Below, piece after piece: positions 7,227 through 58,669 of a DNA stretch of 64,000 nucleotides. The translations under genes and the position numbers were made by a program. The first letter of the stretch is position 1. Every line of letters begins with the position of its first letter. The DNA comes from a virus, in IMG/VR virus record IMGVR_UViG_3300042898_002514; one strand, 5' to 3'. Below the pieces are notes generated by a model that searched no databases, was not told where the DNA came from, and was given only the letters and a program-made list of their open reading frames with translations.

Positions 7227-8396
7227 ATGTACAGATACAACGAAATTAAAACAGTACATCTAGAAATCACAGCAGCCTGTAATGCCAGTTGTCCCATGTG
7301 CTCACGCAACATCAATGGGGGAGAAGTTAACCCACAGATGCCCGCCGCTGAACTTGATCTAGCAGCCATAGAAAAGATATTTGATCCTGAGTTTGTTAGG
7401 CAGTTGGATAGGATCTATCTCTGCGGCAATTTTGGAGATCCAATCGCAGCTCGAGATACTCTAGAAGCACTGAGTTATTTTAGAACTACCAACCCCAACA
7501 TCAACCTTAGTATGCATACTAATGCTTCAGCCAAGCGACCTGAATGGTGGGCAGAGTTGGCTCGGGTGATAGGACCCAAGGGCTATGTGGTATTCAGTCT
7601 AGACGGCCTAGAAGACACTAACCACCTGTACCGACAGGGCACTGTATGGTCAAAGATAATGGAAAATGCACGAGCTTTTATTGCCGCAGGTGGTCGTGCT
7701 CGTTGGGACTACATTGTGTTTGCTCACAATGAACATCAGGTAGAAGCTGCAGAAGCTCTTAGCAAAGACATGGGTTTTGAGCGTTTCCAATACAAGAAGT
7801 CTGCTAGATTTTTCAGTAATAGCAGCGGGATGACCAAAGAAATGCATCAGGCTGCCAATCGTCGAGGACTGGCTACTACACTGTTGCAACCTCCAACCAA
7901 TCCCAAATACAGAAATTCAGTAATCGACGAACTCAGCAAGATCAGTAAAAACAATCAACCCTTGAAGTTTTTGCCCAGCAGAGTGGTCGATGTAAAAGAC
8001 ACGCTGTACTCACAGACGTTCCACAGAGACCCTCTAAAGAAAAAACCCATGGAACGTGTCTGGGACGAAGCAGAAATAAAATGCAAGGTGCAAGAAGAAA
8101 AAAGTCTTTACATTTCAGCAGAGGGCATTGTACAACCCTGCTGCTGGACAGCCAATCAGATGTATGTTTGGTATTGGAATGAGCACGGTGGTCAAATATG
8201 GACGGCCATCGATGAAGTGGGCAAAGACACATTAAATGCCATTGATCACAGTCTAGAAAGCATAGTTGATGGCAGATACTTTCAAGAAGTTATTCCCGAG
8301 AGTTGGGGCAAATCTAGTTGTGCTGACGGCAAACTGGCAGTCTGTGCTAAAACCTGCGGTACTAAATATGATGCATTCAAGGAGCAATTTAAGTGA
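7227..8396 (+). CDS. radical SAM protein with C-terminal SPASM/twitch domain
   Basis: CNASCPMC; C-terminal C...PCC...C..TC. Confidence 0.92.
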   Translation: MYRYNEIKTVHLEITAACNASCPMCSRNINGGEVNPQMPAAELDLAAIEKIFDPEFVRQLDRIYLCGNFGDPIAARDTLEALSYFRTTNPNINLSMHTNASAKRPEWWAELARVIGPKGYVVFSLDGLEDTNHLYRQGTVWSKIMENARAFIAAGGRARWDYIVFAHNEHQVEAAEALSKDMGFERFQYKKSARFFSNSSGMTKEMHQAANRRGLATTLLQPPTNPKYRNSVIDELSKISKNNQPLKFLPSRVVDVKDTLYSQTFHRDPLKKKPMERVWDEAEIKCKVQEEKSLYISAEGIVQPCCWTANQMYVWYWNEHGGQIWTAIDEVGKDTLNAIDHSLESIVDGRYFQEVIPESWGKSSCADGKLAVCAKTCGTKYDAFKEQFK

Positions 8397-8464
8397 AATA
8401 TGTAGATATGGGATGTGTATGCATACACGATATAAGAGAGAGAAAAATTACTAATGACAACTGA
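8393..8464 (+). pseudogene. 23-aa minigene, probable deletion remnant of a radical SAM paralog
   Basis: GTG start overlapping the upstream stop, AAGGAG RBS; MKYVDMGCVCIHDIRERKITNDN resembles the C-terminus SCFCTHDMKARKFKI of the next gene. Confidence 0.55.
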
Positions 8465-9479
8465 TGTCTACAATCAATGGTTATTAAAAAATACCAAACC
8501 TTTTGATCAACAAACAGCAGAGCAATCAGATTATCTCAGAGTTTGTTTTCAGGTAGGAAACATCTGTACCAATAATTGTGTTTATTGCCCCCCAGGATGT
8601 AAAGACGGAACATACCCTTGGCCCAGTTATGAACAGGCTGCTAAAATTATTAATAAAATTGATCAGATATATAAAAGTGCCCCCTACAACAAGAAGAAAA
8701 TTCAATTTGAACTGCTAGGCGGAGAAGTAACACTTTGGAAAGACATTGAAAGAGTTATAGAATTAATATATTCTTTAGGTAATACTGTTTGTCTAGTTAC
8801 CAACGGAGTTAGAACTGTTAGATGGTGGCAAGAGTATGGAAAATATTTTGAATATATTACCTTGAGTGTTCATGCAGAGTTTGCAGAAAAGGAACATTGC
8901 ACTGATGTATTGAATGTACTGACAGAAAACAATGTAAAAAGTCATGCACTGATGCTGATGTTACCCAGTCATTGGCAAAAGTGTTTAGACACCATTGACT
9001 ATATGGTAGAAAATGGCAAGTTTGAATTAATACGAGCAAGACCGTTAACATTAATAGGGGAACAAGGCAACCATGATCGATGGCCTTATTCTGATCTAGA
9101 ATGGAAATGGTTAGAAGACAATCCAACATTCTTTCCCAAGGCCGGCAAGGTAATAAATACCCCAAAAGGACCCAATTGGGAAAGTACATTATGGCGAAAC
9201 TCAGTTACCAAAGAAATCAAGATACAAAACGCTGAAGAAGTTATTTCTCTAAAACAAAATAATTGGAAGGGATGGAATTGTTTTGTTGGTATAGATACAT
9301 TATATCTAGAACAAAATGGAGACATACGAAGGGATGCCATGTGTTATGTACGTCCACCAATAGGAAATTGGAAGAGAGATAATCTTGATGAACTAACTTG
9401 GCCCTTTGAACCGGTAAGATGCCCGTTTAATTCTTGTTTCTGCACACACGATATGAAAGCACGAAAATTTAAAATATGA
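8454..9479 (+). CDS. radical SAM protein
   Basis: CTNNCVYC, GGE, TNG; C-terminal C..G..C...CxxxxCxC. Confidence 0.92.
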   Translation: MTTDVYNQWLLKNTKPFDQQTAEQSDYLRVCFQVGNICTNNCVYCPPGCKDGTYPWPSYEQAAKIINKIDQIYKSAPYNKKKIQFELLGGEVTLWKDIERVIELIYSLGNTVCLVTNGVRTVRWWQEYGKYFEYITLSVHAEFAEKEHCTDVLNVLTENNVKSHALMLMLPSHWQKCLDTIDYMVENGKFELIRARPLTLIGEQGNHDRWPYSDLEWKWLEDNPTFFPKAGKVINTPKGPNWESTLWRNSVTKEIKIQNAEEVISLKQNNWKGWNCFVGIDTLYLEQNGDIRRDAMCYVRPPIGNWKRDNLDELTWPFEPVRCPFNSCFCTHDMKARKFKI

Positions 9480-9542
9480 AATATTCACAAAACAACGAAC
9501 AAGAAATTATATTAAATTTCTTTGTTATCAAGGAAAAATAAG

Positions 9543-10313
9543 ATGAGTAAAAAAGTTTTAATATTAGGATGTAGTCTTACTCAAGGTTCTTACGCTAGAG
9601 ATGAAAAATCATCAATTAAAGAGAGCATTGTTTCATCGTACGGATGGTATGATTCTTTAAAATGCTTAAAAGATTTAGAAATTGATGTTTTTGCATATGG
9701 TGGTGGTGGCTATACCACTTTTGCTGAGACTCTCAACGATTTGCATTCCAACGGCAAATTAAAAGATTACTCGATGTTAATTATTCAGGAAACTTCAGAA
9801 CCTCGATTTGTTTTAAGAAAACAAGATTTTTCTTGGCGAGAAGATTCATCTAAAGAGATTGAGGGAAGAGAGCTGTTAATAAAACACAGGTCTGCTTTTT
9901 CTATCCCTCCGCAATCTGTATTTTCAAAGAATCCTACTACCTTGGACGCTATATGCGAACATCACTATGGAATCCCATCCTTACCAACTGATTTTAAACT
10001 TGATATATTAGAATCAATTACATACAAAAATTTAGTTAAATTTTCTTTGGCTTATATAAATCAAACTATAGAACAATATAATTTAAAATCTTTTGTATTT
10101 TCATTATTTGAACCGCATGCCAATTCTGAAAATTTGCCAAAGGCCACTCGATTAGATTTGCCATCAAATTTATACTATGAAATTAAAAATGATTCATTGA
10201 AGAATTTAAGTTCGGAAATCGAGCTGCCTAGATCTTATCTCAGACATTTTTCTAATCTAGGAAATAAAAAATTAGGAGAAATCATAAACGAATCTCTTAA
10301 AAAAATTATTTAA
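9543..10313 (+). CDS. SGNH/GDSL hydrolase-like protein
   Basis: ILGCSLTQG block I, GGG block II, C-terminal HFSxxGN. Confidence 0.7.
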   Translation: MSKKVLILGCSLTQGSYARDEKSSIKESIVSSYGWYDSLKCLKDLEIDVFAYGGGGYTTFAETLNDLHSNGKLKDYSMLIIQETSEPRFVLRKQDFSWREDSSKEIEGRELLIKHRSAFSIPPQSVFSKNPTTLDAICEHHYGIPSLPTDFKLDILESITYKNLVKFSLAYINQTIEQYNLKSFVFSLFEPHANSENLPKATRLDLPSNLYYEIKNDSLKNLSSEIELPRSYLRHFSNLGNKKLGEIINESLKKII

Positions 10314-10323
10314 TACATATTAC

Positions 10324-10470
10324 ATGCAATCAAAATATCCTTCAAAAACTTGGTGTATCTTACCCTGGGTACACCTTAGCACTAGACCCGATGGCAGTAT
10401 ACCTGTAAGATGTCCATTTAATTCTTGTTTCTGCACACACGATATGAAAGCACGAAAATTTAAAATATGA
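10324..10470 (+). pseudogene. 48-aa chimeric minigene (N-terminus of the 11107 rSAM fused to the C-terminus of the 8454 rSAM)
   Basis: MQSKYPSKTWCILPWVHLSTRPDGSI-PVRCPFNSCFCTHDMKARKFKI, in frame. Confidence 0.85.
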
Positions 10471-11105
10471 AATATTCACAAAACAACGAACAAGAAATTA
10501 TATTAAATTTCTTTAACGGACGCATAGGCCGTTATCTAGACATAGGTGCATTTGATGGTGTGGCGGCAAGCAACACTCTTGCTCTAGCTGAACTAGGTTG
10601 GCAGGGTACTGTCATTGAACCTTCTCCTTGGGTGTTTAAAAGATTAAAAAGCAACTATGAAGAAAGAAATCTAACAACAAATATAAGACTGATAGAAGCT
10701 GCTGCGGTTCCCAATAACTATCCAGCTCAAATGAAATTCTACGAAACACATCGAATGGATCACTTTGAAGTCGGCAATGGTGTTGGCGGGTTTTCTTTTG
10801 AACACTCCACTAAAGAAATATTGAGAAATGAAAACATTTATTACGGTAAAGTATTAGAAACTATAGTAGATACTATAAAAGTAAAAGATATATTTCATAA
10901 TACTAATTATAATTTTATAAGTATAGATGTTGAATCATTTAATCTTGAGTTAATGGTTAGTATTCCGTGGGAGACTCTAACAGAATTAGAGCTCATTTGT
11001 ATTGAATCGGATGTTCCTTTCTGGCGATTTGTTAATTTTATGAAACCGTTAGGTTGGGAAGTTCATAGGGTTGAGAATTTTAATCTATTTTTTGTAAGGT
11101 CATAA
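10467..11105 (+). CDS. FkbM family methyltransferase
   Basis: YSQ start, LDIGAFDG..SNT, IEP, SIDVE motifs. Confidence 0.88.
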   Translation: MKYSQNNEQEIILNFFNGRIGRYLDIGAFDGVAASNTLALAELGWQGTVIEPSPWVFKRLKSNYEERNLTTNIRLIEAAAVPNNYPAQMKFYETHRMDHFEVGNGVGGFSFEHSTKEILRNENIYYGKVLETIVDTIKVKDIFHNTNYNFISIDVESFNLELMVSIPWETLTELELICIESDVPFWRFVNFMKPLGWEVHRVENFNLFFVRS

Positions 11106-11106
11106 A

Positions 11107-12507
11107 TTGAGTTATCCTAGTAAAACATTTTGTATCCTACCCTGGGTACATCTAAGCACTCGACCAGACGGCAGTATGCGAGTGTGCTGTACAGCCAATG
11201 CCAGTGGAGTAGGTGCCAGCAACGATAAAAAACTTGGAGGAGCACAAGTAGGAGTACTCAAAGACGACGAAGGTCTCCCAAGCAATCTCAACAACACAGA
11301 CTTTCAAACAGCTTGGAATAGCAACTACATGAAGAATGTGCGTAAGCAGATGTTGGCCGGCGAACAACCTCCTAGCTGTACTAAATGTTATAAAGAAGAA
11401 GCTGCTGGTCATAATAGCAAACGTCAATGGGAAACTGAGTATTGGAAACAACGTGTAAGCGTAGACAAGTTGATCAACGAAACCAACGAAGACGGTAGTG
11501 TTCCCCCACAGCTGGCCTACATTGATCTACGTTTTGGAACCAAATGCCAATTGGCCTGTATCATGTGCAGCCCACATGACAGCAGTGGCTGGATCAAAGA
11601 TTGGCAGAAGGTGTTCCCCACACTGGAAAGTGAGGGAGTTAAAAAAATATGGCAATGGGATAACAAGGGCAGTATCAACGGCAGTAGTTATAATTGGCAC
11701 AAACAAAATCCTGTGTTCTGGCAACAGTTCTATGAACAGATTCCACATATGCAACAGGTTTACTTTGCAGGCGGAGAACCCCTAATCATCGACGAACACT
11801 ACGAGATCCTGGAAGAGATTATTCGACAGGGTCGTGCCAAAGACATTGAGATTCGCTACAACAGCAATGGAGTAGAATGGCGTGAAGATCTGTTTGAGTT
11901 ATGGAGCCACTTTAAAATTGTACGATTCCATTACAGCGTAGACAGCATAGGTGCTATGAATGAATACATTCGGTATCCCAGCAAGTGGGAACGTACACAA
12001 CAAGTATTCCGTATACTTGACGAGCAGACCACAGACAATGTAGAAGTAACTATTGCCTGCGCTGTAAATGCCCTAAACATATATTACATTCCAGACTTCT
12101 TGAAATGGAAACTGCAACAGAACTTCAAGAAAGTTAATATGTGGCCGTTAGGAGCAGGAGGTATAAACTATCACTTTGTCTATTGGCCAGCTTTCTTAAA
12201 TGTAAAAGTATTGCCACAATGGTTCAAAGATGAATGTGAACGCAAGTACGAAGAGTTTATTCCTTGGTTTGAAGAAAACTGGGAATTGTGTCTATCTGAA
12301 AAAGATAGAGGAAAGATAACTAAAGAACGTTGGCTAGCAAACAGCTACGGAGTGAAACGACTTCGAGGCATGATCAGCTTTATGAAGTCAGAAGACTGGA
12401 GTCAACGATTGCCGGAAATGAAAGACTATCTAGAAAAAATAGATGCACATAGAGGAATATCTTTCTATGATACTTTTCCAGAAATGAAGGATATTTTTAA
12501 TGAATAA
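11107..12507 (+). CDS. radical SAM protein with N-terminal twitch/SPASM-like domain
   Basis: FCILPW..CC..CTKC, then CQLACIMC and GGEP. Confidence 0.92.
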   Translation: MSYPSKTFCILPWVHLSTRPDGSMRVCCTANASGVGASNDKKLGGAQVGVLKDDEGLPSNLNNTDFQTAWNSNYMKNVRKQMLAGEQPPSCTKCYKEEAAGHNSKRQWETEYWKQRVSVDKLINETNEDGSVPPQLAYIDLRFGTKCQLACIMCSPHDSSGWIKDWQKVFPTLESEGVKKIWQWDNKGSINGSSYNWHKQNPVFWQQFYEQIPHMQQVYFAGGEPLIIDEHYEILEEIIRQGRAKDIEIRYNSNGVEWREDLFELWSHFKIVRFHYSVDSIGAMNEYIRYPSKWERTQQVFRILDEQTTDNVEVTIACAVNALNIYYIPDFLKWKLQQNFKKVNMWPLGAGGINYHFVYWPAFLNVKVLPQWFKDECERKYEEFIPWFEENWELCLSEKDRGKITKERWLANSYGVKRLRGMISFMKSEDWSQRLPEMKDYLEKIDAHRGISFYDTFPEMKDIFNE

Positions 12508-13624
12508 AAATATATTTTGTGTAGCACCTTTTGTTAATTTAAGTACAACCAATCACGGAAAAGTTAGACTGTGTTGTCAATCAAAGACACTAGGCAATCT
12601 TCATGTAAACAAAAATAGCCTAGAAGACATATGGCAAGGTCAAGATTATCAACGTGTTCGAGAACAATTTTTAAACAACAAATGGCCCACAGAGTGTGAT
12701 ACCTGTAGACTTAACGAAGAAAAAAGTATTCCAAGCCGTCGAAGTTTTGAAAATCAAAAATGGTCTCAAATAGAAAAAAAATCGTATCCAACACAGGCCG
12801 TTGATTTTCCATGGGCAGTTGATTTGAGATTGGGGAATCTGTGTAATTTAAAATGTATAATGTGTACTCCTGACAACAGCAATACATGGTATGATGAATA
12901 TGAAAATTTTGAACATCTCAAATTTTTTAAGAAGGATGAAAATGTTCGCTGGCCCCTACATCCTAGTTTTTTAGACAACTATCAAGAATGGGTTCCAAAG
13001 GTACGAGTGTTGTACTTTAGTGGAGGAGAACCTTTACTAATAAAAAAACATAGACAAATTATAGAATTTTTAATTGAAAAAGATCTAGCAAAAAATATTG
13101 TTCTTTGGTATGATACCAACGGAACTTACATCGATCAAGAGTGGATCGATATGTGGTCTCATTTTGAACAAGTTAATCTAAGCCTAAGCATAGATGGCGG
13201 CAAACAAATTAATGAATATATACGATTCCCCACAAATCATGACAGCCTTTTAGAAAATTATAAACTGCTTTCTACAAGATCAAAAAATATCAAGGTCAAA
13301 TTACAAATAGCAGTGGGTGCTTTAAATATTTTTGAAATTGATAAAATTAGATTATACTCAAATCAATTTAATTTTTCACTTAACTTTAATGTAAGTATTA
13401 TATTTTGGCCAATCTTTATGACATTGGATGCTTTACCACACAGTGTAATAGATCAAATAACAGCACAATATAAAAATGATCCCAATGATAGAATTAAAAA
13501 TATGACTAAAAATCTCAAACACGATCCACAAAAACTAAAAGAACTAAAAGAATATTTGAATAAAATAGATGAGCTAAGAGGATTAGATCATAGAACTTGT
13601 TTTGAATACCTATACAAGGACTAA
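12500..13624 (+). CDS. radical SAM protein with N-terminal twitch/SPASM-like domain
   Basis: FCVAPF..CC..CDTC, then CNLKCIMC and GGEP. Confidence 0.92.
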   Translation: MNKNIFCVAPFVNLSTTNHGKVRLCCQSKTLGNLHVNKNSLEDIWQGQDYQRVREQFLNNKWPTECDTCRLNEEKSIPSRRSFENQKWSQIEKKSYPTQAVDFPWAVDLRLGNLCNLKCIMCTPDNSNTWYDEYENFEHLKFFKKDENVRWPLHPSFLDNYQEWVPKVRVLYFSGGEPLLIKKHRQIIEFLIEKDLAKNIVLWYDTNGTYIDQEWIDMWSHFEQVNLSLSIDGGKQINEYIRFPTNHDSLLENYKLLSTRSKNIKVKLQIAVGALNIFEIDKIRLYSNQFNFSLNFNVSIIFWPIFMTLDALPHSVIDQITAQYKNDPNDRIKNMTKNLKHDPQKLKELKEYLNKIDELRGLDHRTCFEYLYKD

Positions 13625-13625
13625 T

Positions 13626-15593
13626 ATGAAAATACTGTTTGGATACTGGGATACTAGAAAATTAGCAAAAGGAATAACAAAAAGTTTTGCTGATCTAACC
13701 TTTTATTGGTCAAAGACAACCGGTGATACTTTGGCAAAAGAAGTAATAGATAATAGTACTGCCAGTTCTATTATTGCTTCGGATAATATAAACACAATAA
13801 TAAAACAGGCAAGTATAGAATCTGCAGATTTTTTGTTTATAGTACCATCGGGAACTATTTTCTTAAATCCAGTCCCTGTAGCCAACGGTCTATTAGAATT
13901 TATAAAAACAGATCCTGCAATAGCTGGACATATCATCGATCATTCAATTAAAAACAATAACTGGAAATCTTTCTTTGGATTGCATGAGCAATGCCTTATA
14001 ATTTCTAAGAGAGTTATAACCGACATAGTAACTGAGGGTTTTACAATAGAAGAGACATTTGAATATAGTGATACCAGTTGGCCGCTAATCGACCGAAGTG
14101 AATCAAATATACACGACAACTATACTCCTTTGTGGATAAAAAAAGGAACTGAAGAAACTGTGCAAATAGAAAAGAAAAATTCAGAATTTTGTCTTTTTCA
14201 TGATCTAATTAAATTTGTTATTAACAAAAATTACACTGTACACAACTTACCTCAAGAACTTAGAAACAATAGAACTTATACCTATCATTTAAATAGACCA
14301 AATGATCTCGAAGCATTGATAGATAAACCGTTATCTGAAATTAACAAAATAGAAACGCAAGTAAAAGGCCACAAAGAATTTTTAATCAAATGGAAAACAT
14401 TATTAAATCCCGAAGCAGGATTTTGGGCCTATAATACAGAATCTACATCAATTGATAACAATTTAAAAGTTGATTGTTTTATTGCTGTGGCCAGCGGAAT
14501 TATTCCGTGGAGTTATCTTGCGAAATTTGATCTTCAGCCTAATTCAAATATCTATTTTGTTGATGTAAATCAAAACTGTCTAGACTTTCAAAAATACATT
14601 TTAGATAATCTTTATAACTTTGACAGCTATTCAGACATTGTTGAAGAATTTAACAAAGACTATAGTCTAATTAGATTTGGTTCAAAAGGCCAATCAGTAG
14701 ATGAAGATAAACTTCTATTTGAAATTAAAGAAAAATGGAATATTATTAAAACTTGTAATTTTCACTTTGTTAAAGGTGATATAATTCATCTAGACGATAA
14801 TATTAAACAGGCCGTGAAAACTTCTAGTCATCCCTATGTTTGGTTTAGTAATGTACTACGCTACATTCCTAGTTTAACTCAACTGTATCGAGACGACAGT
14901 CTTCAGGCTTACCTAACAGAACTGCTATCCTATAATTTAAATTTTTCTTGGTCAGGCGTTGGAATCAACAATCATAGAAGTTCCGGACCAAATAGTTTAC
15001 CGAATGCTGTGGGAAATTTTTACAAAACAATTGACATTAAATTACCCTACAAAGACTTTGTTGATGAGATCAAATCTTTAGAGAATCTTAATTTATTCAC
15101 ACGTCATAGAAGTGATAATTATGTTAAAGGAGTGCAATTACACAGAGGTTGGTCAAGTTTTGTATTGCACGGATTAGGGTATGATAAAACTGAAGGGTAT
15201 GAAGTGTACGGCTATGACAATAATGACTCAGCTCCCTACGAATGGACTCAAGAAGCAATTGAACACTGCCCAAACTTGGTTAATTGGTTTAAAGAAAACA
15301 AGTTTAAAGACAGATACCATAGACTTCGAATAATGAAGCTAGATCCAGGCGGAATGATAGGACTGCATTCTGATAATCCTGATCCAAATACCTGGGCAAC
15401 CAACATGGCTATAATCAATCCAGAAGGCTGCGAAATGCATTTTTGGAACAAGAATTGGGAATACTTAGGACAGGTTCCTTGGGAGGCTGGTGATACCAAT
15501 AGAATAAGAATTGGCTATTTCCATATTGTAATTAATAAAAGCAACGAGACAAGATACCATATGATTATACACGGAGAAGGCGGATGGATGTAA
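13626..15593 (+). CDS. multidomain protein with C-terminal Asp/Asn beta-hydroxylase-like 2OG-Fe(II) domain
   Basis: RLRIMKLDPGGMIGLHSD...H.V.N....RYH. Confidence 0.75.
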   Translation: MKILFGYWDTRKLAKGITKSFADLTFYWSKTTGDTLAKEVIDNSTASSIIASDNINTIIKQASIESADFLFIVPSGTIFLNPVPVANGLLEFIKTDPAIAGHIIDHSIKNNNWKSFFGLHEQCLIISKRVITDIVTEGFTIEETFEYSDTSWPLIDRSESNIHDNYTPLWIKKGTEETVQIEKKNSEFCLFHDLIKFVINKNYTVHNLPQELRNNRTYTYHLNRPNDLEALIDKPLSEINKIETQVKGHKEFLIKWKTLLNPEAGFWAYNTESTSIDNNLKVDCFIAVASGIIPWSYLAKFDLQPNSNIYFVDVNQNCLDFQKYILDNLYNFDSYSDIVEEFNKDYSLIRFGSKGQSVDEDKLLFEIKEKWNIIKTCNFHFVKGDIIHLDDNIKQAVKTSSHPYVWFSNVLRYIPSLTQLYRDDSLQAYLTELLSYNLNFSWSGVGINNHRSSGPNSLPNAVGNFYKTIDIKLPYKDFVDEIKSLENLNLFTRHRSDNYVKGVQLHRGWSSFVLHGLGYDKTEGYEVYGYDNNDSAPYEWTQEAIEHCPNLVNWFKENKFKDRYHRLRIMKLDPGGMIGLHSDNPDPNTWATNMAIINPEGCEMHFWNKNWEYLGQVPWEAGDTNRIRIGYFHIVINKSNETRYHMIIHGEGGWM

Positions 15594-16819
15594 AAAAAGA
15601 AACTTTTTGTATTGCTCCGTTTACACACCTATCTACTAAAACTGACGGTAGTATAAAGGCCTGCTGCAGAAGTTTGCCAGCATTATCAAATATTAAAAAA
15701 GAAACTTTGCTTCAGGCCTGGAACAACGAAGAAATGAAACAGCTTCGCAACGACCTTATAAACGGCGTTAGAAACGAACGCTGTGATGTCTGCTGGAAAC
15801 TGGAAGATGTTGGCGCCCAAAGTCTTCGTATGAAGTACAACAGCTCTTCAGTGGGCAGACAGGTAATTAATGCAGAAACAAATTTAAAATCTATTAACGA
15901 AGATTATAGTTTAAACAATAAGCCTACTTGGATAGAATTTAAACTTAGCAATCTTTGCAATTTTAAATGTCGTATGTGCCACCCTATGGATAGTACACGT
16001 TGGTTTGAAGATTATAAAAAAATATCACACCTACACGAAGATAGTTGGCAACAAGAAATGATAGATCTTAATCTAACTAAAAAATCATTGTTAAAGAGTT
16101 ATCCGGAAGAATTTTTTGAAAACTTACCAGAGTTGATGAGTAATGTAGATGAAATTTGGTTTGCGGGCGGCGAACCTTTATACGACAATGATCATTATAG
16201 AATTCTTGAAAGTGTAATGCATCGCGCTGATAAGATTACTTTAAATTATGCAACTAATTTAAGTATGCTATCTAATAAAAAATACAATGTAGTTGATTAC
16301 TGGAAAAAATTTAAAAAAGTTATTGCAGCAGTGAGTTTAGATGGGCCTCCAGATCTTAATGAATATATTAGATCAGGAGCAGATAGCAAAGTAATCGAAG
16401 ATAACATAAGACTATTGCAGAAAGAATTACCTAATGTTTTTATACAGGGAAAAATAACAGTACAGGCGCTGAACATTTACTATGTCCCCGAAACGTTCGA
16501 ATGGTTCAAAAATATGAAGGTGTTCACAGGAGTTCATTTTGTCACTTGGCCAAAGTTCTTAGACAGTAGAATCTGGACCGGTGAAGCCCGGCAAGAAATT
16601 AAAGTAAAACTAGAATCTTATCTAAAACATCAAGACAACTTGAACGGTTTACAATTAAATGTAGGCAATAGTATTAGAGATGTTGTTAGATTTTTTAATG
16701 GATCTGAACAATATGATAACACTAAATGGAATAAGTTTTTAGAGTATAATAAAACACTTGACGGCGCAAGAGATGAAACGTTTGAAAAATTTGAGTTTTT
16801 AAAAAAATGGATGAAATAA
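15584..16819 (+). CDS. radical SAM protein with N-terminal twitch/SPASM-like domain
   Basis: FCIAPF..CC..CDVC, CNFKCRMC, GGEP. Confidence 0.92.
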   Translation: MDVKKETFCIAPFTHLSTKTDGSIKACCRSLPALSNIKKETLLQAWNNEEMKQLRNDLINGVRNERCDVCWKLEDVGAQSLRMKYNSSSVGRQVINAETNLKSINEDYSLNNKPTWIEFKLSNLCNFKCRMCHPMDSTRWFEDYKKISHLHEDSWQQEMIDLNLTKKSLLKSYPEEFFENLPELMSNVDEIWFAGGEPLYDNDHYRILESVMHRADKITLNYATNLSMLSNKKYNVVDYWKKFKKVIAAVSLDGPPDLNEYIRSGADSKVIEDNIRLLQKELPNVFIQGKITVQALNIYYVPETFEWFKNMKVFTGVHFVTWPKFLDSRIWTGEARQEIKVKLESYLKHQDNLNGLQLNVGNSIRDVVRFFNGSEQYDNTKWNKFLEYNKTLDGARDETFEKFEFLKKWMK

Positions 16820-17988
16820 CTTCTAAAACATTCTGTGTATTGCCATGGATGCATTTGGCTACAAATGCCAGCGGAAATTTACGTGTTTGTTGCAACAGCG
16901 ATCCCAAAAACAATAACATTTTAAAAAGTCCTGGCTCGTCATATCAAATACAACGTGATGATATGTTAGAAGCTTGGAATAGTCCTACATATACAAAAAT
17001 AAGACAGCAGTTTTTAGATGGAGAACGACCTGACATGTGCGTTAGATGTTTTCGAGAAGAAGATGCAGGTATTAAAAGTGCAAGACAAGCAGCCAACGAT
17101 AAATGGGGGACGGACCGAGAGTATCCGATCCAGGCGACATTTAATATTAGATATGTTGACATTCGATTAAGTAATTTGTGTAATCTAAAATGTCGTATGT
17201 GTAATCCTTATGCTAGTAATATGTGGACAGCAGAATGGCCCTTGATAGGAGAAGTTCTTAGTCAAAGCGAATACAATAGATTAAACAACATGGATTGGCC
17301 TGAAAGAGAAAAAACTTGGGAAAATTTATATCTTATTGCTGACACTGTAGAAGAAATATATCTAACAGGCGGCGAGCCAACAATTATTAAAGCACAGCAC
17401 AAACTCTTGGATTATTTTATAGATAGGGGTACTGCTAAAAATATTAGATTGAAATACAACACAAATCTTACTAATGTTCCAAAACATTTATTAGATCGGT
17501 GGACGCATTTTAAACGTGTACAATTGAATTGTTCTATTGATGCAACAGGAGAACTTGATCGTTATATTAGATTTCCCAGCAGTTGGCAGCATATCCAAGA
17601 AAACTTTGAAAAGATAAGAACATTAAAAAATTGTTCAATAGAGATCCATTGCACAGTACAGATGTATAATATACTTCGCCTCAACGAATTAATAGATTGG
17701 GCAGTTCCCTACGGACATAGAATTTATTTTAATATTTTAAATCACCCGGAAGAATTAAACATCCGGGTCTTGCCACAGCATCTAAAAGAACAAGTGGTTA
17801 AATTATTAGAACCTTATCTGCATATAGATAAAGTCAAAGGAATTATTGATTATATGAATGCAGAAGACTGGAGTCATAAACTTCCTAAGTTTTATCATTA
17901 TACAAACGCACTAGACAAGTCTCGCAACCAAGATCTAGCAACTTTAATACCAGAATTATCATATGAAAATACTAGTAGCAGGAAATAA
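16807..17988 (+). CDS. radical SAM protein with N-terminal twitch/SPASM-like domain
   Basis: FCVLPW..CC..CVRC, CNLKCRMC, GGEP. Confidence 0.92.
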   Translation: MDEITSKTFCVLPWMHLATNASGNLRVCCNSDPKNNNILKSPGSSYQIQRDDMLEAWNSPTYTKIRQQFLDGERPDMCVRCFREEDAGIKSARQAANDKWGTDREYPIQATFNIRYVDIRLSNLCNLKCRMCNPYASNMWTAEWPLIGEVLSQSEYNRLNNMDWPEREKTWENLYLIADTVEEIYLTGGEPTIIKAQHKLLDYFIDRGTAKNIRLKYNTNLTNVPKHLLDRWTHFKRVQLNCSIDATGELDRYIRFPSSWQHIQENFEKIRTLKNCSIEIHCTVQMYNILRLNELIDWAVPYGHRIYFNILNHPEELNIRVLPQHLKEQVVKLLEPYLHIDKVKGIIDYMNAEDWSHKLPKFYHYTNALDKSRNQDLATLIPELSYENTSSRK

Positions 17989-18517
17989 AAATTACGGCCT
18001 TGCTGCCGAATTATTTAAATTGTACCCAGATGTTTTTTTTGCTAGCCGTACTACAGGCTTTGATCTAACAAAAAATGATGATCAGAAAAAACTAGCGGAT
18101 CTCACATTAGATTATGATATCTTTATAAACTGTAGTGCTTTACATAAATTTAATCAAACTATTTTATTAGATGCAGTTTACAAAAAATGTACAGAGAATA
18201 ATCATAGACTTCAAATCATTTGCATAGGATCTACCACTGACCGTGTGAAGAAAGGCGGCGCTTGGTTGTATAACGCAGAAAAGAAAGCATTGAGAGACTA
18301 CTGCAATACACTAGGTATGAATGGTGTTTGGGATAACGGTCCTAAAATTACCTTAGTTAGTTTTGGAAGTTTAACAAATGTACAATCTAAACATCCTACA
18401 AGAAAATGTTTAGACATTGTTCAAGCCGCACTATATATTAAATGGATTGTAGAACAACCAAAAGATATTTGTGTAAATGAAATTAGTATAGATCCGTTAC
18501 AACAACCTTATGAATGA
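17963..18517 (+). CDS. short-chain dehydrogenase/reductase-like protein
   Basis: N-terminal G-x4-GLA Rossmann motif, FINCS, catalytic YxxxK (YNAEK). Confidence 0.75.
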   Translation: MKILVAGNKNYGLAAELFKLYPDVFFASRTTGFDLTKNDDQKKLADLTLDYDIFINCSALHKFNQTILLDAVYKKCTENNHRLQIICIGSTTDRVKKGGAWLYNAEKKALRDYCNTLGMNGVWDNGPKITLVSFGSLTNVQSKHPTRKCLDIVQAALYIKWIVEQPKDICVNEISIDPLQQPYE

Positions 18518-19679
18518 TTTAAGTTGGTCGGCCTACGACTTTACCCAAATACCCTACAACGATATTGTTCGTGTAGGACAACGTACAATGTTGTACAAAG
18601 ATCTCTTTACAGTCAGTTGGCTGTTAGGACGTTATTGTAATTACCGTTGTAGCTATTGCTGGCCCTATGCCCGCAGTGATACAAAAGACCACAGACCAAC
18701 CGAACTGTGTTTACGCACAATAGATGAAATCAAACGACAAGCTAGAGAACGCAATTTTAACAGTTTTCATTTTAGTCTTAGTGGCGGCGAGCCTACCTTC
18801 CATCCTGGTTATATTGATATCCTTAATTATCTAAATGATGATGTAGCAAACACAAACTATACTAGCGTACACATGACTAGCAATATGAGTAGACCACTTA
18901 AATGGTTTGAAGAAAAGTATTGTCCTGCTGTTAGTAAATTTCATCGTGCTAGTATCACTGCTAGTTTACATACAGAACACGTAGACACACCCGAGAAGAT
19001 GCAGGAGTTTGCCGACAAACTAATACTATGCCAGCAACACGATGTTCAAATAACTATTAATCAGGTTATGGTTCCTGAATGGTTTGAACGTGATTTTGAA
19101 AATGCTCTGTTCTTTCACAATCAAGGCATCAATGTTACACTAAAGCCTCAGAGTGATCCCACTGCTAGTCGTGTAGTTGATGGATATACTCCTGACATGT
19201 TAAAACGTCTACACAACGGTATGCCGCAACGTGCCTTCACTGAAGATAAAGCAACCAAGACCAAGTTAGTTAAACGTCCTGAACCCAAATTCTTTAAAAC
19301 ACCAGATCCTATTTACAAGCAAGAACACAGTAAAATACCACAGCATTTTCAAGTAGAGTTCGTAGATAAAGAACAGAAGATTTGGTACATGGATCAAGCT
19401 GAACGGTTCAATGCTTTTAATTTTAACAAGTTTACAGATTGGGAATGCTCAAGCGGCTACAGAGGCATTATTATACGTGAACCAGACGGCAGCATTAAAC
19501 GTAGCTATAGTTGCCACGATGCACCGTTAGGTAATATAGAAACAGGATTTCAGCTTTTTGACGGCCCTAAACCTTGTATTAGTCCTAGCTGTGTAAGCAG
19601 TGCAGACAGTAAAATACCTAAAAGAGCGCCAGGTACCAAACTGCCTCTTTGGCCCGGCGACAAAACTTTTGAATCCTAA
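18510..19679 (+). CDS. radical SAM protein
   Basis: CNYRCSYC, SGGEP, C-terminal Cys cluster. Confidence 0.92.
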   Translation: MNDLSWSAYDFTQIPYNDIVRVGQRTMLYKDLFTVSWLLGRYCNYRCSYCWPYARSDTKDHRPTELCLRTIDEIKRQARERNFNSFHFSLSGGEPTFHPGYIDILNYLNDDVANTNYTSVHMTSNMSRPLKWFEEKYCPAVSKFHRASITASLHTEHVDTPEKMQEFADKLILCQQHDVQITINQVMVPEWFERDFENALFFHNQGINVTLKPQSDPTASRVVDGYTPDMLKRLHNGMPQRAFTEDKATKTKLVKRPEPKFFKTPDPIYKQEHSKIPQHFQVEFVDKEQKIWYMDQAERFNAFNFNKFTDWECSSGYRGIIIREPDGSIKRSYSCHDAPLGNIETGFQLFDGPKPCISPSCVSSADSKIPKRAPGTKLPLWPGDKTFES

Positions 19680-19689
19680 TAAATACTTG

Positions 19690-19932
19690 ATGCGAATATT
19701 TGAAGTTATCCAAAACAAAGAATTAGACGAAGAGCCCGCGAGCCGAGCTCTTTGCACGAGCGGCAAACCCAATGCTGCACTAGGTGCCAGTCAACTGGCC
19801 AGCTGCAAGAGCCAAGGCTATCGTGGTCGACACGGCAATAAATCACACAAGATTGGCAATGAGCGCACCACAGTAAAAGGCAAAAGAATCAAGGGCAAGA
19901 AATATGGCGGCCCACTTCCAGACTGGAGTTGA
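19690..19932 (+). CDS. small basic protein with MRIFE N-terminus (putative virion-internal)
   Basis: ATG 4 nt after TAAATA; K/R-rich C-terminal half. Confidence 0.7.
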   Translation: MRIFEVIQNKELDEEPASRALCTSGKPNAALGASQLASCKSQGYRGRHGNKSHKIGNERTTVKGKRIKGKKYGGPLPDWS

Positions 19933-19938
19933 TCTAGA

Positions 19939-20496
19939 ATGCATAGAATCGAAAAAGGAGATTTATTAATATCTCCTCCTAACATGAGCGATTCAAGATT
20001 TGACAAAACAGTGTTACTGGTCACTCATAGTACAAATCGAGGTTCTCTGGCACTCTGTGTAAATCGCCCAACAAGCCATTCAATAAACAGCGTCCTCAAA
20101 GAAATAAACATAGAGCTGGCTCAAGATTTCAATCTCTATTGGGGTGGTCCAGTGGGACTCAACACAGTATGGATGTTACATCACAGTGATTGGAAGATGG
20201 ATTCAACACATAGGATCAATGCCGATTGGTCAATGACCAGCAATGTTGGTATGTTTCATCATCTAGCCGACAACGATTATCCAGAGCGTTTTAGAATATT
20301 TTTTGGACAAAGCAGCTGGGGCCCAGGACAACTTGAAGGCGAGCTACTAGGCGATCCGCCGTGGAGCAGACAACAAAGCTGGCTGACTTTAAAAACACCT
20401 GATCCAGTTTGGCTTTTAGAAACGAATACCAAAGAGATGTGGATAGAATCCACGCAGTTATGCGGAGAACAGGCCACTGACAGTTGGATGGCCTAG
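19939..20496 (+). CDS. YqgE/AlgH (DUF179) family protein
   Basis: LLISPP.M.D..F.KTV, NRP, GGPV, G.S.WGPGQL..EL. Confidence 0.9.
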   Translation: MHRIEKGDLLISPPNMSDSRFDKTVLLVTHSTNRGSLALCVNRPTSHSINSVLKEINIELAQDFNLYWGGPVGLNTVWMLHHSDWKMDSTHRINADWSMTSNVGMFHHLADNDYPERFRIFFGQSSWGPGQLEGELLGDPPWSRQQSWLTLKTPDPVWLLETNTKEMWIESTQLCGEQATDSWMA

Positions 20497-21384
20497 ATGC
20501 AACTTCGCAGTATTAGAGACAATCGATATTTCTATATCGACTGGTGGTTGATGAATCACTGCAATTACAATTGCAGTTATTGTCCTGATATTATAAAAAG
20601 TGGCAGTATTGACTTGCCAAACATCGAACACTGTTTGAAATTTGTTGATCAAGTTAGTGACTTTGCCAAAACCCTAGGCAAAACCTGTAATTATTATTTT
20701 ACAGGAGGGGAAGTTACTCAGTGGCCCTGGCTTGTGGATTTGATAAAACACATCAAGACAAAAAACAGTAACGTATGCATACGAACCAATGCCAGTATGC
20801 CTATTGCAGAATGGAAAACCCTGTTAGATACAGTTGACAGTATAAATCTAGAAGTACATTCAGAACACACTCCGATCAGTCATTTTATGCTATGCTTATA
20901 TGCTGCTAAAAAGAAAAATGTAAACGTAAGTATAACAGTGAGTATGTTGCCGGACCGATGGCAAGAATTAGAAGATACTATTACTAAAATAAAAAAAATG
21001 TGGCCCGATCAACTCGTTCATAGAAAGATGCTGTTTGAAGATCCCGCTATTAACAAACAGCCGATGGAATACAAACTTGAACACGCTGTAAAATTAAAAC
21101 GCCAACACGGAGATTTGATTTACGTTAATGACACAGGAGAAGAAGAATTTTCAGACTTTCAAACTCTTATGCTTGAGAAAAAGAATACGTTTCCCGGACA
21201 ACAGTGTATGGCCGGCGTTGAACAACTAATCGTTGATGCCTGGGGCCGTATAAAACGAGGCCACTGTGGTCAAGGTGGCCTTGTTGGAAAACTAGGAATA
21301 GAATTTACAGGGGTTCAAAACTCTATAATTTGCAAAGCCGATGCCTGTCGCAACGGCTTTGACATCCAAGCTACTAAACAGTAA
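20497..21384 (+). CDS. radical SAM protein
   Basis: CNYNCSYC, TGGE, C-terminal Cys. Confidence 0.9.
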   Translation: MQLRSIRDNRYFYIDWWLMNHCNYNCSYCPDIIKSGSIDLPNIEHCLKFVDQVSDFAKTLGKTCNYYFTGGEVTQWPWLVDLIKHIKTKNSNVCIRTNASMPIAEWKTLLDTVDSINLEVHSEHTPISHFMLCLYAAKKKNVNVSITVSMLPDRWQELEDTITKIKKMWPDQLVHRKMLFEDPAINKQPMEYKLEHAVKLKRQHGDLIYVNDTGEEEFSDFQTLMLEKKNTFPGQQCMAGVEQLIVDAWGRIKRGHCGQGGLVGKLGIEFTGVQNSIICKADACRNGFDIQATKQ

Positions 21385-32552: not shown

Positions 32553-33137
32553 ATGTTAGTACCAATGGTAATTGAATCATCTAGTAAAGGCGAACGAGCC
32601 TACGACATTTACAGCCGACTGCTCAAAGAAAGAATTATCATGCTGAATGGTCCTGTAGAGGATCAAATGGCCAATGTTATTGTAGCCCAATTACTATTTC
32701 TAGAAAGTGAAAATCCAGACAAAGACATCAGCCTGTTTATCAACAGTCCCGGTGGAGTTGTCACATCGGGTATGAGCATCTATGACACCATGCAATTTAT
32801 CAAACCCGATGTATCAACCTATGTTATGGGACAGGCCTGTTCAATGGGATCATTGTTGGCCACTGCCGGAGCCAAAGGCAAACGTTTTATGTTGCCCAAT
32901 GCTCGACACATGATTCATCAACCCAGTGGCGGTGCTCGCGGACAGGCCACAGATATGCAGATTCAAGTTGAAGAGATTATTAAAATGAAAAAGACATTGA
33001 CTGAAATCTATGTCAAACACAACAGCCAGGGCAAAACTTTTGCACAGATGACTGCTGATATGGAACGAGACAAATTTATGAGTGCTGATGAAGCATTGGC
33101 CTACGGACTCATCGACAAAATTATAACGGAGAGATAA
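32553..33137 (+). CDS. clpP: ATP-dependent Clp protease proteolytic subunit
   Basis: [30 protein letters not shown]. Confidence 0.97.
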
Positions 33138-57191: not shown

Positions 57192-57489
57192 ACAAGGCGA
57201 TCTTGCCAAAATTATCATGAGCATACGGCCTACCAACATAGGCAAAACTGTGTTGGTGGATGAGTATGTGGGACATTTTACGCAAGGTGAGGAATTTCAG
57301 TTTAAGGGAATTGCCTGCAAGGCTGCTATTACAGATCACTTTTGGTGGATAGCCACAGAATTTGGATTGAGTAATATGTACGGAGATACTCCAAAGGCCT
57401 ACATTCCAGATTCCTGGTTAGAACCTATTCGTCCTATGAAAGAAGTCCAAAAGCAACAAGAAGACATTGACTTAACTGTTAAAATGTAG
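57181..57489 (+). CDS. hypothetical protein
   Basis: MKCEQGDLA...DSWLEPIR. Confidence 0.75.
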   Translation: MKCEQGDLAKIIMSIRPTNIGKTVLVDEYVGHFTQGEEFQFKGIACKAAITDHFWWIATEFGLSNMYGDTPKAYIPDSWLEPIRPMKEVQKQQEDIDLTVKM

Positions 57490-57501
57490 TTAAATATAAG
57501 T

Positions 57502-57848
57502 TATTGCTGTATGAAGCGATGAGAAATAAGTTCAAGACGCGGGGGCAGTGCCCGCCAGGTCCACCAAAAGGATATTTATGAAGTACACCGCATTGTGCCC
57601 AAGTTGTTTTAATAGATTTAGTTGGGCACCAGGTAAAGGTTTAACAAGACATAAGTGTTTTTCTGATGGGCCTGACACAGGATCGATTGGGCAAAGAGTA
57701 ACAGAGTGGACAGCTCGGCAATGTAGAAGCCGTTAGGATTGGGGTCTCCCGGTCGAAGACACAAAAAAGTAACCGCAAACGACTCAAAGTTCGCATTAGC
57801 TGCCTAAACTCAGCTTAGGGTAAGACATACCTCGTAACAGAAACTCGG
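57502..57848 (+). ncRNA. ssrA: circularly permuted two-piece tmRNA, alphaproteobacterial type; tag (A)ANDSKFALAA
   Basis: 3' acceptor piece CAGGTCCACCA (57556-66) lies upstream of 5' GGGCCTG (57668); G3:U70 pair; T-loop GGCAGTG; tag ORF 57775-57807; AACAGAA at 57836; outer ends approximate. Confidence 0.92.
57578..57736 (+). CDS. putative zinc-finger peptide encoded in the tmRNA intervening sequence
   Basis: AAGGA RBS; CPSC-x14-HKC; first 30 codons end exactly at the mature tmRNA 5' end. Confidence 0.5.
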   Translation: MKYTALCPSCFNRFSWAPGKGLTRHKCFSDGPDTGSIGQRVTEWTARQCRSR

Positions 57849-57870
57849 AACCCGCTTCGGCGGGTTTTCT
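57849..57870 (+). terminator. intrinsic terminator (copy 1)
   Basis: AACCCGC-TTCG-GCGGGTT then T run. Confidence 0.9.
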
Positions 57871-57883
57871 TTTTGTTTTGTAC

Positions 57884-57912
57884 TTGACATTTGGCACTAT
57901 TGACGGTATAAT
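57884..57912 (+). promoter_or_regulatory. consensus sigma70 promoter
   Basis: TTGACA-17-TATAAT. Confidence 0.9.
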
Positions 57913-57955
57913 AAACACATACGCTAAACAAGCGGCCACATCTAGAAAGACTAAA

Positions 57956-58669
57956 ATGATTTCCGATAACATCAAAAACTTAACTACTGAAGAATACAGA
58001 TTGTTGCAGTCAACACAAGACCGAACACGGTGGACTGAGTTTTATGGATTACCTGACGCAATGTATTATCCTGTACAAGCTCCCATTTCATCTAAACGTA
58101 AAGGTGATATATGGGAAGATAAAATACGTGCATCATCTGGGCTATTAGAAAAGCAAGACGAAACCCATGATGCCACTTTAGACTCTGCTGTTGTTAAATT
58201 GCAAAATTTACGGGGAGCCCGTGTGGAAATCAAATATACTGTAATAGCCAAAGGTGACTCTACAAAAGCAATTGAAAAAAGAGGATATGCTCTAGAAGCA
58301 GGCGCACGTACTAAGAAACTTGTAAAGAATCCGCTTGCTACTAAAGGTTATAATTATATCGGTGGCGGCACTTTTCAACAGATACATCCAGACAAAGCTG
58401 ACTACGGATTGTTTTCTGCGGTGTTCGGCAACGGTGCTGTGCATTACTGGGTTCCTTATCACCTAATCTCAACCACCGCGGGTGCTGATAATTTCACTAA
58501 AGGTATGATACCGTTACAATCACAACACCGAGGACACACTACAGAAGGACAAATTAGTAGACCGGAAAAATTCCATGATTTGTTCTTATTAGACATCACA
58601 TGGGAAACTCCATTCCTTACAGATTTATCTAAATACGATTTATCTAAATACGAAAACTTGGTGTACTAA
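57956..58669 (+). CDS. putative restriction endonuclease-like PD-(D/E)XK protein
   Basis: G..WE...HD...VEIK; adjacent to a methyltransferase. Confidence 0.55.
   Translation: MISDNIKNLTTEEYRLLQSTQDRTRWTEFYGLPDAMYYPVQAPISSKRKGDIWEDKIRASSGLLEKQDETHDATLDSAVVKLQNLRGARVEIKYTVIAKGDSTKAIEKRGYALEAGARTKKLVKNPLATKGYNYIGGGTFQQIHPDKADYGLFSAVFGNGAVHYWVPYHLISTTAGADNFTKGMIPLQSQHRGHTTEGQISRPEKFHDLFLLDITWETPFLTDLSKYDLSKYENLVY

Follow-up and report, generated by a model that had tools for sequence, protein, structure and literature searches.

Can the intervening sequence of a two-piece tmRNA gene itself be a gene, and what becomes of a reading frame that runs, without a stop, out of such a spacer into the tmRNA from which the spacer is to be removed? 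Both questions are posed by a lake-phage locus in a 64,000-nt stretch of viral DNA (the window, by which we mean the whole stretch analysed), in which the spacer of a tmRNA gene carries a frame for a small Cys- and His-containing peptide. An earlier note on this DNA had proposed that the excised spacer is a non-stop message and that its product, built into the tmRNA gene as a sensor, would accumulate only when trans-translation or ClpXP is saturated.

The region 57505-57807 (+) is a circularly permuted (two-piece) tmRNA gene, which matches the Rfam model RF04321 at 102.1 bits (gathering threshold 47) and also the alpha-type model RF01849 at 72.6 bits (gathering threshold 50). ARAGORN called no tmRNA in the window, and the Rfam model was needed to recognize the gene. 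Its parts are permuted: the T-arm and the CCA-bearing 3′ acceptor strand come first, followed by the intervening sequence, the 5′ acceptor strand and the tag frame. The acceptor stem (GGGCCUG/CAGGUCC) contains a G3·U pair, and the tag frame (57775-57807) encodes ANDSKFALAA followed by a stop. Both the CCA end and the position of RNase P cleavage are predicted from the tRNA-like fold. The 5′ end of the acceptor piece (57505-57530) reads TGCTGTATGAAGC in nearly all of these phage tmRNAs; it contains an ATG, the frame of which meets a stop after 3 codons in the window and is open through the whole spacer in a related locus, L201.

The locus has no annotated close relative among 50,697 phage records, as blastn returned only short T-arm or terminator matches, and the nearest record (G001), 99.6% identical, is uninformative. 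A scan with the sigma-70 consensus found no promoter directly upstream of the tmRNA gene. Right after the terminator of the tmRNA stands a perfect sigma-70 consensus promoter (TTGACA, 17 nt, TATAAT; 57884-57912), and downstream of it a 237-aa ORF (57956-58669) without a Pfam match. Elsewhere in the window, positions 7227-21384 hold a run of ORFs with CxxxCxxC-like N termini that, judged from their first 40 residues only, have a radical-SAM/SPASM-type look (for example, 7227-8396, 12500-13624, 15584-16819, 16807-17988 and 20497-21384).

The core ORF of the spacer starts 11 nt after the CCA, occupies 89% of the spacer and translates to MKYTALCPSCFNRFSWAPGKGLTRHKCFSD, with the pattern CxxC-x14-HxC; the first in-frame stop is a TAG at 57734-57736, which makes the precursor ORF 52 aa long. 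The layout given in the earlier note agrees exactly with the sequence and the list of open reading frames: a spacer of 101 nt between the CCA end at 57566 and the GGGCCTG start at 57668, AAGGA (57568-57572) and an ATG at 57578, 30 codons without a stop up to the predicted RNase P site, a precursor frame ending at 57736, the spacing of the Cys and His residues and a phage clpP (Table 1). A single open frame of 30 codons would arise in such composition with a chance of roughly 0.1-0.2, by our estimate, and is not significant alone; the comparative data below show it to exceed chance.

Table 1. Positions of the tmRNA gene, its spacer and associated features in the window
Feature	Position	Strand	Basis or remark
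tmRNA acceptor piece	57505-57566	+	5′ pairing strand, T-arm, 3′ acceptor strand CAGGTCC, discriminator A and encoded CCA (to 57566); RF04321 alignment, model positions 1-63; T-arm and acceptor stem in precursor MFE fold
Intervening sequence (spacer), 101 nt, absent from mature tmRNA	57567-57667	+	insert in CM alignment
SD-like AAGGA	57568-57572	+	5 nt before ATG; also in the 5′ strand of the closing stem
Closing stem, 5′ strand	57568-57580	+	holds SD and AUG; pairs with 57650-57662, 13 bp
Core ORF, 30 codons, Cys2-His-Cys peptide	57578-57667	+	ends ...FSD at the last spacer base
Inner hairpin GTGCCCAA...TTGGGCAC	57595-57629	+	codons 6-9 paired with codons 16-18
Closing stem, 3′ strand	57650-57662	+	ORF codons 25-28
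Leader CTGAT before mature 5′ end	57663-57667	+	its TGA (57664-57666) is out of the ORF frame
Read-through part on unprocessed precursor	57668-57736	+	22 codons and TAG, inside the mature tmRNA 5′ region
tmRNA coding piece	57668-57807	+	GGGCCTG, D-loop analogue, tag frame; CM alignment and sequence
Intrinsic terminator closing the tmRNA transcription unit	about 57847-57878	+	
Phage clpP (context only)	32553-33137	+	Pfam CLP_protease, 276.3 bits

Conservation of the spacer frame and its peptide

Relatives of the peptide were collected by a protein search with the 52-aa precursor ORF as query, by back-translated pattern scans of viral contigs and by an exhaustive profile search of 1.84 billion proteins. 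The family so defined comprises 17 distinct spacer DNAs in at least eight phage tmRNA bodies, beta-type tmRNAs (RF01850, 125 bits) among them. Every one of the 17 variants starts 11 nt after the CCA and lacks stops, and its last codons, those for ...(F/L)SD, directly abut the 5′ acceptor strand. The frame, the Cys and His residues and the codon phase at the predicted RNase P site (17/17 spacer copies), the conservation of which the earlier note had proposed to test across phage two-piece loci, are kept throughout. One member (P0001), located in a different tmRNA body, departs from the window's 30-residue peptide by two conservative changes, and four of the six DNA differences from the spacer ORF of the window are synonymous; one subgroup carries an in-frame 6-nt (two-codon) insertion. 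All 15 peptide variants, namely the 13 of the alignment plus P0003 and P0005, have C7, C10, H25 and C27 unchanged. Within the 13-sequence alignment M1, Y3-P8, F11, F14, W16, G21, L22, H25-C27, S29 and D30 are invariant as well, and residues 9, 12, 15, 17-20 and 23 vary. Few family members occur in a collection of 15 billion proteins, and when 185,579 species genomes were searched with a degenerate pattern, none of the 74 matches obtained at that stringency lay in a tmRNA context or had the family signature. A CxxC...H...C peptide in the spacer of another locus (L013) is similar by eye and proved unrelated by hhalign.

Coding constraint was assessed on a neighbour-joining tree with Fitch reconstruction, which yielded 61 inferred substitutions. 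Read in the ORF frame, the changes are 25 synonymous, 34 non-synonymous and 0 stop-creating; the corresponding counts are 7, 48 and 4 in frame +1 and 12, 35 and 12 in frame +2. The synonymous excess is confined to the ORF frame (25/59 compared with 14 expected by random placement, P=0.0004), and the count of zero stop-creating changes in that frame has P=0.056 under random placement.

The exhaustive profile search also returned a free-standing homologue, P0005 (34 aa, 62.5 bits, E 2.3e-12), encoded at L488:1501-1605 between two tRNA genes of a phage-like contig, with its own AAGGA and its own TAA; no tmRNA was found at this locus. Compared with the spacer versions, 13-14 of its codons are identical, 7-8 differ synonymously and 11 change the residue, and the DNA differs mostly at third codon positions. 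The existence of this copy outside any tmRNA establishes that the Cys2-His-Cys family is a protein, and its normal stop shows that this protein can do without a non-stop context. Judged from these comparisons of sequence, the spacer ORF is a genuine, conserved, phage-specific protein-coding micro-gene.

The same nucleotides also fold. The spacer alone is predicted to form a long hairpin closed by a stem (-25.3 kcal/mol, z -2.8), and the precursor, in its MFE fold, has this hairpin next to the T-arm and the acceptor stem. The closing stem is kept in 16/16 aligned variants, in which one-sided changes turn G·U into G-C or A-U pairs. RNAalifold retains both stems, with only one double-sided covariation; the inner stem is broken without compensation in four variants, and the Cys, Pro and Trp codons are retained there. 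Because the invariance at the N and C termini overlaps the closing stem, part of the conservation belongs to the RNA level. RNA structure and coding thus coexist in the spacer, with the periodic signal attributable to coding.

The predicted product is a basic peptide of 30 residues that probably binds zinc through its CxxC knuckle and HxC motif, and a basic Cys2-His-Cys zinc knuckle is our best guess at its identity. AlphaFold2, given the 13-sequence alignment, modelled two β strands (residues 3-6 and 13-17) that form a hairpin around the CxxC knuckle, at a pLDDT of 77 for the best model and 52-63 for the other four. The peptide matched no Pfam family at E up to 1 and, as a profile, no PDB sequence at E up to 10, and Foldseek returned nothing for the model at E under 3. 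Of the named Atlas clusters, those closest to the peptide are of small Cys proteins (Zn_ribbon_Com, 0.83; SR1P, 0.81), which, with all scores below 0.9, serve as leads only. Small zinc-ribbon and zinc-knuckle proteins include Com of phage Mu and ribosomal protein L36, and the peptide resembles these in being basic, in its size class (about 30-60 residues), in its CxxC knuckle between two β strands and in the two ligands near the C terminus; it differs from them in having no significant sequence or fold match and in its Cys2-His-Cys arrangement with the unusual HxC spacing.

The spacer slot and its exchange between phages

A pattern scan of viral contigs for a T-arm and acceptor end gave 118 loci, 85 of which are permuted tmRNAs, and a second scan, with the 5′ strand of the window's lineage, gave 68 distinct spacers that fall into two classes. 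Non-coding spacers are hairpins that start with about AAAGCATAYT and end with about AGTATGCTTT-TGAT; coding spacers start with TAAGGAnnTTTnATG, and their ORF fills 78-97% of the spacer. The TGAT is conserved in nearly all spacers. Coding spacers outside our family share its layout of SD and start codon, with the start 9-12 nt after the CCA, and some of their ORFs match Pfam families: DUF2061 (72.6 bits), DUF6356 (39.3 bits) and Oxidored-like (45.5 bits). Homologous pairs of spacer genes show a third-position bias (for example, 10/7/33 differences by codon position). The spacer peptides fall into 29 families. In 16 of them the ORF terminates at the UGA of the UGAU leader, one base short of the mature 5′ end; five terminate further upstream, and eight (about four of them credible) are still open at the end of the spacer. 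The leader UGA is thus used by 16/24 of the families that reach the leader, compared with the 1/3 expected by phase alone. These patterns suggest that the spacer is a slot used by many phage tmRNA genes for small genes.

Loci of close relatives were collected through a 102-aa gene just upstream of the window's tmRNA. Phages that are 97-98% identical in this gene have minimal hairpins of 24-25 nt or unrelated spacers of 68-90 nt in their tmRNA genes, and one of them (L220) combines a tmRNA body almost identical to that of the window with a 24-nt spacer without the peptide gene; more distant phages carry other small genes in the spacer. Since the spacers of close relatives lack it, the peptide gene is exchangeable cargo and not integral to the tmRNA, and the earlier description of the peptide as built into the tmRNA does not hold.

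Several further observations concern the slot and the gene around it. At the same position as in the window, some relatives (L219-L229, L233, L240 and L248) have a beta-type tmRNA (RF01850), in some cases without an encoded CCA; a different tmRNA subtype beside an upstream gene that is 97-98% identical points to the tmRNA gene itself being mosaic and exchanged between close relatives. The spacer of a phage permuted tmRNA at L105:6043-6188 contains a tRNA-Val(GAC) (L105:6101-6170, ARAGORN); a tRNA gene within an intervening sequence figures as a unique case in a 2025 tmRNA database paper. T-arm-like GGTTCGAnTCC elements, uncalled by ARAGORN, occur in the spacers of L068, L082, L144, L008, L040, L073 and L046. 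At L201:8224-8472 (-), a 115-nt spacer encodes the Oxidored-like domain (CCGRGCxGCVW; PF09791, 45.5 bits) in a frame with neither start nor stop inside the spacer; this frame is open from an ATG in the conserved 5′ part of the acceptor piece via T-arm, CCA and RNase P site into the tmRNA, in the same phase as the ORF of the window. The region L238:3134-3389 holds a 256-nt spacer in which two ORFs for small membrane peptides follow one another, both preceded by an SD.

Proposed course of translation and maturation on the precursor

All 17 spacer copies are open up to the point where RNase P is predicted to cut, and in each the leader UGA lies one base out of phase. The in-frame stop follows 3, 8, 17, 18, 19, 22 or 29 codons inside the tmRNA, and the resulting tails are unrelated, the read-through tail of the window not being conserved among family members. 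A few other spacer genes cross the site without a stop (L160/L184, L163, L262 and the Oxidored-like frame of L201). For RNA, contigs of four lake metatranscriptomes, which do not show RNA ends, were compared with positions 57400-57950 of the window. A 188-nt contig (depth 51.7) joins a different T-arm and CCA to a family spacer (the VM variant) and the 5′ acceptor strand of another tmRNA body; as DNA carry-over into the library is possible, it is a weak hint of an unprocessed precursor. A joint that skips 76, considered as a processing product, fits a relative with a short spacer instead.

The best explanation, to which we assign a probability of about one half, is an exchangeable micro-gene whose ribosome reads the precursor through the RNase P site before the tmRNA matures. 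The order of events, with the ribosome ahead of RNase P, is the most likely one by reasoning. A ribosome would load on the SD of the nascent precursor before the 3′ strand of the closing stem exists; because the spacer of this family has no stop, it would continue past the RNase P site, enter the tRNA-like domain by its 5′ strand and end translation where the tmRNA offers its first in-frame stop, in the window after 22 codons. Formation of the acceptor and closing stems, and with it RNA processing, would have to await this termination. SD and AUG would then be hidden in the closing stem, so that few peptides would be made per transcript. Since the frame extends over the cleavage site, any one molecule could at a given moment serve either peptide synthesis or tmRNA maturation, but not both.

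RNase P cutting under a translating ribosome would create a non-stop complex of the kind known from trans-translation. Were RNase P to cut first, the ribosome would stall at the new 3′ end (...GAU-3′) and need trans-translation; such stalling must take place to some extent, in our analysis as a side path and not as the designed one. Four considerations favour the read-through path: an excised spacer would hide SD and AUG in its closing stem; 3′ maturation of the acceptor piece, as inferred from tRNA processing, would place a cut alongside the SD; the 5′ acceptor strand would be occupied by a ribosome that translates the final codons; and tails of any kind are tolerated beyond C27, that of the free-standing copy among them. 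Ribosomes would more probably initiate on the nascent precursor, where a stop lies 3-29 codons downstream, than on the excised spacer, where SD and AUG would be locked in the 13-bp closing stem. The proposal of the earlier note that the excised spacer is the translated message is therefore disfavoured. Read-through as the normal fate would, however, add a variable tail of 3-29 residues, which is odd for a conserved core of 30, and the fact that the family consistently keeps the nearby UGA out of frame could alternatively reflect selection for a missing stop.

In a different reading, that of the earlier note and a possible but rather doubtful one, the spacer would be a message designed to lack a stop: cleavage by RNase P would leave the ORF without one, the product would be tagged by phage or host tmRNA and destroyed by ClpXP, and peptide would escape only if trans-translation or proteolysis were saturated, its level reporting rescue capacity by the logic of arfA. 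Such a design would account for the stop-less state and the constant end phase at the last spacer base in 17/17 copies. That most other spacer genes stop on the leader UGA (16/24, against 1/3 expected) makes the stop-less state a conserved exception and not the default. The unconserved read-through tails, a phage tag ending in ALAA, the phage's own clpP and the Cys-rich spacer ORF of L201, which crosses the site in the same phase, are likewise consistent with it, and the arfA precedent is real (PMC3989581). It has to contend, however, with SD and AUG being base-paired in the stem that closes the excised spacer, with an acceptor-piece 3′ maturation that would, by inference from tRNA processing, cut next to the SD, with the stop that the precursor offers 3-29 codons downstream, with the normal stop of the free-standing homologue and with the lack of similarity to ArfA. 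The closest relatives, moreover, lack the peptide, which can thus be no general control device of phage tmRNA, and accumulation of the peptide is unlikely because its mRNA and the tmRNA arise 1:1 from one transcript. We consider it unlikely, too, that the tmRNA gene makes its own obligatory trans-translation substrate, a peptide that survives only when tmRNA-SmpB or ClpXP is exhausted and then acts on the translation or rescue machinery; if true, arfA-like logic would have been invented independently and wired into the tmRNA precursor itself.

It might also be the act of translating that matters and not the peptide, much as with a leader peptide, a ribosome that crosses the closing and acceptor stems delaying or timing their folding and RNase P processing. 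The ORF does cover both strands of the closing stem and enter the 5′ acceptor strand, in a layout common to unrelated spacer ORFs, but amino acids are conserved beyond what pairing needs (the four Cys and His residues, W16), and the synonymous bias in the unpaired middle part indicates a product under selection. With a homologue that stands free of any tmRNA and many close relatives whose tmRNAs manage with 24-nt spacers, we hold this reading to be quite improbable. Least credible, and largely refuted by the comparative data, is that the ORF is an accident of a conserved processing hairpin. Although the hairpin is stable, the non-coding spacers of the lineage have similar stem ends (AAAGCATAYT...TGAT) and the closest relatives lack the gene, a mere hairpin would leave unexplained the synonymous excess in the ORF frame only (P=0.0004), 0 stop-creating changes against 4 and 12 in the other frames, the in-frame 6-nt indel, the Cys, Pro and Trp codons that stay in the four variants with an uncompensated break in the inner stem, and a free-standing homologue with its own stop.

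Relation to known systems

Two-piece tmRNA genes of phages are known from the OM43 phage Melnitz and from pelagimyophages (PMC9004378; the Melnitz paper covers the phage tmRNA only), and the bacterial permuted tmRNAs are covered by RF04321, RF01849 and RF01850 (PMC11915505). The gene in the window shares with these known cases the order of acceptor piece with CCA, intervening sequence and coding piece, a tRNA-like domain with G3·U, a tag ending in ALAA and a place beside nucleotide-metabolism genes in an aquatic phage. In contrast to published accounts, in which the intervening sequence is treated as discarded RNA, that of the window carries a conserved gene with a frame that extends past the RNase P cut. 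As contents of an intervening sequence, the 2025 tmRNA database paper names no more than a tRNA gene and a repeat element, and we found no report of protein genes in tmRNA intervening sequences in the searchable literature. Gene callers and tmRNA annotators both miss such spacer genes. Precursors of tmRNA have been viewed purely as precursors of a stable RNA and their spacers as waste; here the waste would be a message, and the nested peptide gene has its ribosome-binding site built into the processing stem.

Dual-function small RNAs that encode peptides include SR1/SR1P of Bacillus subtilis, SgrS/SgrT and RNAIII/hld. As in these, one transcript would be both a functional RNA and the message for a peptide of under 50 residues, and SR1P is likewise a small Cys-containing peptide (with the weak Atlas score of 0.81). 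Unlike in dual-function RNAs, the coding part is removed during maturation, so that the two roles would be sequential and competing: one RNA molecule would be either translated or folded and cut and, if cut under the ribosome, would yield exactly the stalled complex that tmRNA resolves. The locus may thus offer a compact natural system for the competition of translation with stable-RNA processing, and it bears on whether phages tune ribosome rescue and on the roles of small Cys/His peptides in infection.

Two further systems place an ORF in an RNA that is cut. In Escherichia coli, RNase III cleavage of a hairpin makes arfA a non-stop mRNA, the product of which is controlled by trans-translation (PMC3989581). 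The spacer resembles arfA in having an ORF for a small basic peptide in a hairpin, in a processing cut that would remove access to the stop and in full-length and truncated forms that would differ in their C-terminal tail; it differs in sequence, in the nuclease, which would be RNase P acting on a tRNA-like fold, in that the message is part of the tmRNA precursor itself, in the sequestration of the SD after excision and in the free-standing homologue with a stop. The 23S rRNA intervening sequence of Coxiella burnetii and Leptospira holds an S23p ORF; the product of that of Coxiella is reported to be apparently not synthesized in vivo and the element to be selfish (PMC4990558). Both cases have a stem-closed piece, excised from the precursor of a stable RNA, that holds an ORF and is patchy and cargo-like in its distribution, whereas the spacer ORF of the window has a strong SD, coding constraint and a free-standing homologue. 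The conserved peptide gene in a tmRNA spacer can thus be compared with three known kinds: dual-function RNAs, ORFs in rRNA intervening sequences (PMC4990558) and the logic of arfA (PMC3989581).
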